A DNA stretch of 64,000 nucleotides, from sequence record MK373782.1; one strand, 5' to 3'. Under the pieces are notes generated by a model. That model was not told the origin of the DNA, made no database searches, and worked only from the letters and a program-made list of their open reading frames with translations. Origin of the DNA: Escherichia phage vB_EcoM_KAW3E185. The translations under genes and the position numbers were made by a program. Shown here piece by piece: positions 43,552 to 44,007 of this stretch (position 1 is its first letter; each line of letters begins with the position of its first letter).

Positions 43552-44007
43552 TTATTTTAGATCTTCGGCCCAATCTAGTTTTAAGGGTTCTTTGTATTCA
43601 CGGTCGAGAATAACCGGAATAGCTACATCACCACTGAATGATAGTTGGCCAACGTTATATGATAACGTTATATGTGGAGTGTAGTCGTCGAAATCATGAG
43701 TAGCACCTAAAGCTCGTGCGTACTGATGACGACATCTAAGATATTCGGAATCAAGAACTAAAACCAGTACAGTGCCGTCGTCAGTTTTCCATACCTCAAA
43801 GTGTCCTGATTCGGCAATAGAATAACTACCACTAGACGTAGTATATGGTATGTTTACACGTGAATAACAAATTGTTGAATGAAGCTTTTCACGTGGTACT
43901 GGATTAGGAATTCTTAATTTACGCTGGAGGTCTTCCAGCGCATCAAGTGTTAATTCCGAAAATTTAGCTGCGACGTAGAGGCCTTGTGAAAAGTCCTCAA
44001 ATTTCAT
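43552..44007 (-). CDS. 57B: gp57B, 2H phosphoesterase family (Acb1-type anti-CBASS nuclease, 151 aa)
   Basis: Two H-x-[TS]-x motifs (HSTI and HITL); size and position next to 57A and gene 1 match T4 57B. Confidence 0.75.

Follow-up and report, generated by a model that had tools for sequence, protein, structure and literature searches.

Orthologues of the two T4 anti-CBASS genes are very probably present in phage vB_EcoM_KAW3E185, as judged from a stretch of 64,000 nucleotides of its DNA (record MK373782.1; hereafter the window): a gene for the nuclease Acb1 at 43552..44007 and a gene for the sponge Acb2 at 29045..29311. Both are intact, full-length ORFs, and the homology of their products to experimentally characterised proteins extends over the whole length. 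By its DNA similarity the window belongs to Mosigvirus and represents a T-even coliphage of the RB69/JS09/ATK47 type; megablast searches with 2 kb and 20 kb around both genes returned many coliphages with 96-98% DNA identity, including ATK47, JS09, SCS57 and Shf125875. ATK47 is placed in Mosigvirus (Straboviridae; Tevenvirinae), while T4 belongs to the sister genus Tequatrovirus. The two genes and their immediate neighbours are listed in Table 1.

Table 1. Position of the two predicted anti-CBASS genes and of adjacent genes in the window
Feature	Position	Strand	Assignment and place	Supporting details
gene 1	44242..44976	-	dNMP kinase; upstream of 57A, synteny anchor	Pfam PF21448, E 7e-96
57A	44007..44237	-	tail-fibre assembly helper; directly upstream of acb1	Pfam PF17594 GP57, E 5.9e-23
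acb1 (57B orthologue)	43552..44007	-	2H-phosphoesterase family	ATG start, 151 aa + stop
ipI	43187..43474	-	internal protein I, nuclease inhibitor; downstream of acb1, synteny anchor	PF11634 IPI_T4, E 2.6e-49
vs.5 homologue	29301..29525	-		PHROG 1986; 3' end overlaps acb2 start by 11 nt
acb2 (vs.4 orthologue)	29045..29311	-	predicted helical-hairpin cyclic dinucleotide sponge	88 aa, ATG start

A preliminary description of this DNA had proposed Acb1 from the pair of H-x-[ST]-x motifs in a 151-aa protein and from the place of its gene. The ORF and the motif pair are both present, the protein containing exactly two such motifs, HSTI (residues 43-46) and HITL (residues 112-115), with a spacing of 69 residues. 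The pair alone is weak evidence, as in the six frames of the same window 4 out of 84 ORFs that are 100 aa or longer carry two H-x-[ST]-x motifs spaced by 55-85 residues. It is the whole-length homology that takes the finding far past chance, as measured by sequence comparison with the known Acb1 proteins. In a phmmer search of all PDB chain sequences the top match was Acb1 of Erwinia phage FBB1 (7T26/7T27, Hobbs et al. 2022, PMC9117128), with an E-value of 5.7e-59 over residues 9-148, and the Pfam model PF23474 “Anti-CBASS protein Acb1” is matched from profile position 1 to 144 of 144 with 197 bits (E 1.6e-58; gathering cut-off 27 bits). The alignment gives 85% identity to T4 gp57B, for which the sequence of the T4T genome record was used, and 64% identity to FBB1 Acb1, so that the proposed identity as Acb1 is borne out. 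Among the PHROG families the protein falls into PHROG 755, while in NCBIfam zero models matched either this protein or the Acb2 of the window.

The function of T4 gp57B as Acb1 has been established both biochemically and genetically: it was found by activity-guided fractionation as the enzyme which degrades cGAMP, and deletion of the gene abolishes the activity of the lysate (PMC9117128). Hobbs et al. named the catalytic tetrad H44/T46/H113/T115, the base-stacking residues Y12, W74, F107 and W147, and E141, which reads the N6 of adenine (PMC9117128). The window protein, with 151 aa, is one residue shorter at its N-terminus than the T4 protein (NP_049750, 152 aa), and T4 positions equal window positions plus one. 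Accordingly numbered, its catalytic tetrad is H43/T45/H112/T114, in invariant alignment columns, and the survival of the catalytic histidines, which had been set in advance as the alignment test of the proposal, extends to the whole HxT/HxT tetrad. The four stacking aromatics (Y11, W73, F106, W146) and the adenine-contacting glutamate (E140) are likewise identical to those of T4, which means that the protein retains each of the nine published functional residues and that none of the 22 substitutions between the two proteins falls on one of them. At two of the stacking or Glu-contact positions FBB1 Acb1 carries F and Y, unlike the window and T4 proteins. The C-terminal lid of the window protein comprises residues 144-151 (LDWAEDLK) and differs from that of T4 in one residue.

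AlphaFold2 (AF2) run on the single sequence gave a pLDDT of 34 for the window Acb1, and the assignment of its fold thus rests on the identity to a solved structure: the 64% identity over 140 residues to 7T26 (1.1 Å) points to a compact 2H phosphoesterase fold. By homology, the protein would be a metal-independent 2H phosphoesterase in which acid-base catalysis is carried out by the two HxT motifs. An adenosine 2'-OH would attack the adjacent 3'-5' phosphodiester in a reaction catalysed by Acb1 and proceeding through a 2',3'-cyclic phosphate intermediate. In this way the enzyme would open cyclic di- and trinucleotide alarm signals such as 3'3'-cGAMP, cUA as well as cAAA, though not c-di-GMP, and with the signal opened the CBASS effectors would never be switched on. 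We infer the enzymatic activity, the substrate range and the in-vivo effect of the window protein from its characterised homologues; such activity has been demonstrated for T4 Acb1 and for some homologues (PMC9117128).

The genomic context of acb1 is that of T4, with the minus-strand order gene 1, 57A, 57B, ipI; the gene occupies the identical slot between 57A and ipI, as the preliminary description had stated in placing it at the 57B position. The cluster thereby includes a second counter-defence gene, ipI. The TAA stop codon of 57A and the ATG of acb1 overlap by one base (TAATG), an arrangement which suggests co-transcription and translational coupling of the two genes. Between the stop codon of acb1 and the start of ipI lies a perfect 12-bp RNA hairpin (GGAUGAUGGUGU / ACUAUCAUCC) at 43510..43536 (minus strand), and the 86-nt intergenic stretch folds with -18.3 kcal/mol (z = -3.6 against shuffles). 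As no U-tract follows it, the hairpin does not qualify as a classical intrinsic terminator; it may serve RNA stability or processing. Further downstream, between ipI and the trna.4 homologue, a 91-aa gene (42858..43133, minus strand) has no T4 counterpart at that place. Its product is assigned to PHROG 7673, described as “internal head protein”, with E 3e-48, the ATK47 gene in the equivalent slot is annotated Ip7, and the stretch MKTFNEFISE, beginning at residue five, resembles the ipI leader MKTYKEFIS. The gene has the appearance of a polymorphic cassette for an internal protein beside the anti-restriction gene ipI.

The Acb2 assignment had first been made on position and size only. The match in sequence is now clear: phmmer aligns the 88-aa protein with T4 Vs.4 (PDB 7UQ2) at an E-value of 9.8e-31, the Pfam model PF24729 “Acb2/Tad1 hairpin” scores 65.7 bits (cut-off 27), and PHROG 717, which is the Vs.4 family according to Jenson et al. 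2023 (PMC10097602), matches with E 3.6e-28. A profile built from 67 Acb2 homologues also reaches the more distant Acb2 of PaMx33 (8H2J, 8IXZ), with an E-value of about 4e-5. The ORF lister had offered an upstream TTG start for a product of 144 aa. This extension runs across the vs.5 homologue in a different reading frame, and the homologues listed have 81-98 aa, which places the start at the ATG at 29311; the short overlap of the 3' end of the vs.5 homologue with the start of acb2 fixes the same codon, and vs.4 and vs.5 of T4 overlap likewise.

Identity between the window Acb2 and T4 vs.4 is 67%, i.e. the window differs from T4 at 33% of the positions, compared with 15% in the case of Acb1. 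For T4 Vs.4, Jenson et al. described the cGAMP contacts Y8, F82, H11, K23 and R79 and the hexamer interface L29, F33, A66, A73 and A77, as well as T12 and S74, which a genetic screen identified as sites of mutations that abolish inhibition of the CBASS effector CapV (PMC10097602). All twelve residues are conserved in the window protein. Its cyclic-dinucleotide pocket consists of Y9, H12, K24, S74, R79 and F82, each invariant in 122 of 122 aligned sequences, and its hexamer-interface residues are L30, F34, A66, A73 and A77. The AF2 model from the alignment of 67 sequences has a pLDDT of 87.8 and shows two helices (14-42 and 50-81), and a Foldseek search of the PDB with this model gave 7UQ2 as the best match (TM 0.72, probability 1.00). 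The T4 protein and the window protein thus share the length of 88 aa, the genomic slot, the twelve published residues and the two-helix hairpin. PaMx33 Acb2 is much further away, with 15-18% identity between the chains 8H2J/8H2X and the window model in structural alignments and 24% identity to T4 Acb2, while its dinucleotide-pocket residues Y11/K26 align with Y9/K24 of the window. Characterised Acb2 hexamers hold three cyclic dinucleotides with nanomolar affinity (PMC10312549, PMC10097602); T4 Acb2 has a Kd of about 30-85 nM for 3'3'-cGAMP. By homology the window Acb2 would assemble into a hexamer whose N- and C-terminal segments pair and hold three cyclic dinucleotides trapped between them.

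The position of acb2, which the preliminary description had given as that of vs.4, also agrees with T4: the gene lies between the vs.5 homologue and an ORF in the vs.3 position, and the order vs.6, vs.5, vs.4, short ORF in the vs.3 position, regB is that of T4. The gene in the vs.3 position (28830..29045, minus strand) encodes 71 aa (PHROG 2037) as opposed to the 92 aa of T4 vs.3 and barely aligns with it as DNA; on its downstream side, acb2 thus has a plastic neighbourhood. The vs.6 homologue (29525..29887, minus strand) lies two genes upstream of acb2, and its product matches the Pfam Gly_radical model with 68 bits (cut-off 22.2) and contains the motif RVSGYAVRF. Judged by this domain it belongs with the GrcA/YfiD-like glycyl-radical “spare part” proteins; in T4, vs.6 is annotated as hypothetical. 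Scans for sigma-70 promoters, terminators and the T4 late promoter (TATAAATA) near acb1 and acb2 found no more hits than shuffled sequence yields, and for this reason no transcription unit or confident promoter can be assigned.

Two other readings of these genes have to be weighed against an intact pair of anti-CBASS genes. The 151-aa protein could be a generic 2H enzyme of the LigT/2'-5' RNA ligase type with a role in RNA repair or tRNA metabolism rather than an immune-signal nuclease, and the databases seem to favour this, as PHROG 755 is described as “RNA ligase”, many RefSeq T-even records (e.g. NC_055708.1) name the orthologue in the same way, and the Pfam model 2_5_RNA_ligase2 (PF13563) gives a weak match (E 0.0091). 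This match, however, reaches 16.5 bits, below its cut-off of 27, while the Acb1 model lies far above threshold at 197 bits, and “RNA ligase” was rejected as the identity of 43552..44007. The name is older than 2022 and reflects the superfamily only: the LigT branch has the superfamily and the two HxT motifs in common with the window protein but is devoid of the nucleobase-clamping aromatics and the lid, which are specific to Acb1. As the residues that hold the bases of a cyclic dinucleotide are all conserved, and as the T4 orthologue with its 85% identity is a cGAMP-degrading enzyme whose activity is lost on deletion, we regard a LigT-type function as very improbable. The other reading, in which at least one of the two genes is a remnant, either decayed or unexpressed, could draw on the lack of a confident promoter near either gene. 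Against this stand the full-length ORFs and the complete sets of functional residues, by which gene decay is excluded, together with the tight packing, with overlaps of 1 nt and 11 nt into adjacent genes that are likewise seen in T4, and the close copies in many phage genomes; that either gene is such a remnant is extremely improbable.

While the ends of Acb2 are strongly conserved, its centre is not. Residues 38-69, the tip of the hairpin, are mostly replaced in comparison with T4, and in the centre of the gene, at 29138..29197 (minus strand), about 40% of the DNA is identical to T4, against 80-87% towards the gene ends and 90-97% for the vs.6 homologue. Column entropy in 122 aligned Acb2 members, all of them closely related T-even-type homologues, amounts to 2-3.5 bits at residues 41-65 and mostly to about 0-1 bit at the ligand-binding ends. 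The variable tip is common to these sampled close relatives and is therefore not peculiar to phage KAW3E185. In the region of the trinucleotide pocket, five T4 residues are changed in the window (Y37 to I, A57 to M, L60 to V, D61 to Q, T64 to K). PaMx33 Acb2 binds cyclic trinucleotides via R67 and T74, whereas T4 Acb2, with D61 and T68 at these positions, does not bind cA3 even as the D61R mutant (Cao et al. 2023, PMC10312549). In the window Acb2, Q61 and Q68 are found at the aligned positions, T4 T68 being replaced as well, so that neither residue of the PaMx33-type Arg/Thr pair for cA3 is present. A trinucleotide pocket was ruled out on these two residues, which lead to the prediction that the protein does not bind cyclic trinucleotides; like T4 Acb2, it probably is without a second pocket for them.

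The concentration of differences in residues 38-69 means that the substrate range or the affinity of the window Acb2 could differ from that of T4. A further reading is a changed ligand spectrum in Acb2 of the Mosigvirus type, for example with a second pocket gained or lost or with a Thoeris signal as ligand. The replaced central third, with the low DNA identity and the five altered residues of the pocket region, would fit such a change, and among Acb2 homologues elsewhere there are some whose ligand is 3'cADPR rather than a CBASS signal. The dinucleotide pocket in the N- and C-terminal segments, on the other hand, shows almost no variation here or among the 120 sampled relatives, Q61 and Q68 at the positions of PaMx33 R67 and T74 argue against a trinucleotide site, and the homologues which bind Thoeris signals use extra terminal β-strands, of which no such elements are seen in the window Acb2 model. 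A changed spectrum is for these reasons unlikely. A small chance is likewise given to diversifying selection on the tip, either through direct recognition of the sponge by a host factor or through the tuning of a second ligand site; if this holds, the window allele of Acb2 would differ functionally from that of T4. The preferred reading remains that of two orthologues, nuclease and sponge, of the kind known from T4.

Many deposited phage genomes contain close copies of both genes. With tblastn, Acb1 homologues turned up in 1,469 phage records; 59 of these reach at least 99% identity and another 93 lie at 95-99% (152 genomes at 95% or above). Acb2 homologues turned up in 1,231 records, 61 of them at least 99% identical (134 genomes at 95% or above); the phages G2285 and mar005P1 carry identical Acb2 proteins. 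The orthologue of phage Mizar, with 99% protein identity, is already annotated as “anti-CBASS Acb1-like protein”. Given this annotation and the close orthologues in many phage records, the presence of Acb1 and Acb2 is to be counted as known. Acb2 orthologues are labelled almost always as “hypothetical protein”, with a few mislabelled as “RegB-like RNA endonuclease”. Annotation is behind the literature of 2022-2023, and what the present analysis adds is annotation and the small observation on the variable hairpin tip of Acb2 only.

The significance of these findings is limited to annotation and to the prediction of a phenotype. On the side of annotation, orthologues which are still called “RNA ligase” or “hypothetical protein” in the databases could be renamed. 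As to the phenotype, Acb1 and Acb2 of T4 are partly redundant with Acb1 dominant in lysates, and Acb1 is required to counter at least one CBASS operon for which either sponge, Acb2 or Acb4, is insufficient by itself. By extension, the phage should resist CBASS systems that signal via 3'3'-cGAMP, cUA or cAAA. Panoptes is a decoy-nucleotide system that fires when Acb2 sequesters its signal (PMC12657218), and because the phage carries Acb2, a predicted sponge, it may in turn be sensed by Panoptes-like systems.
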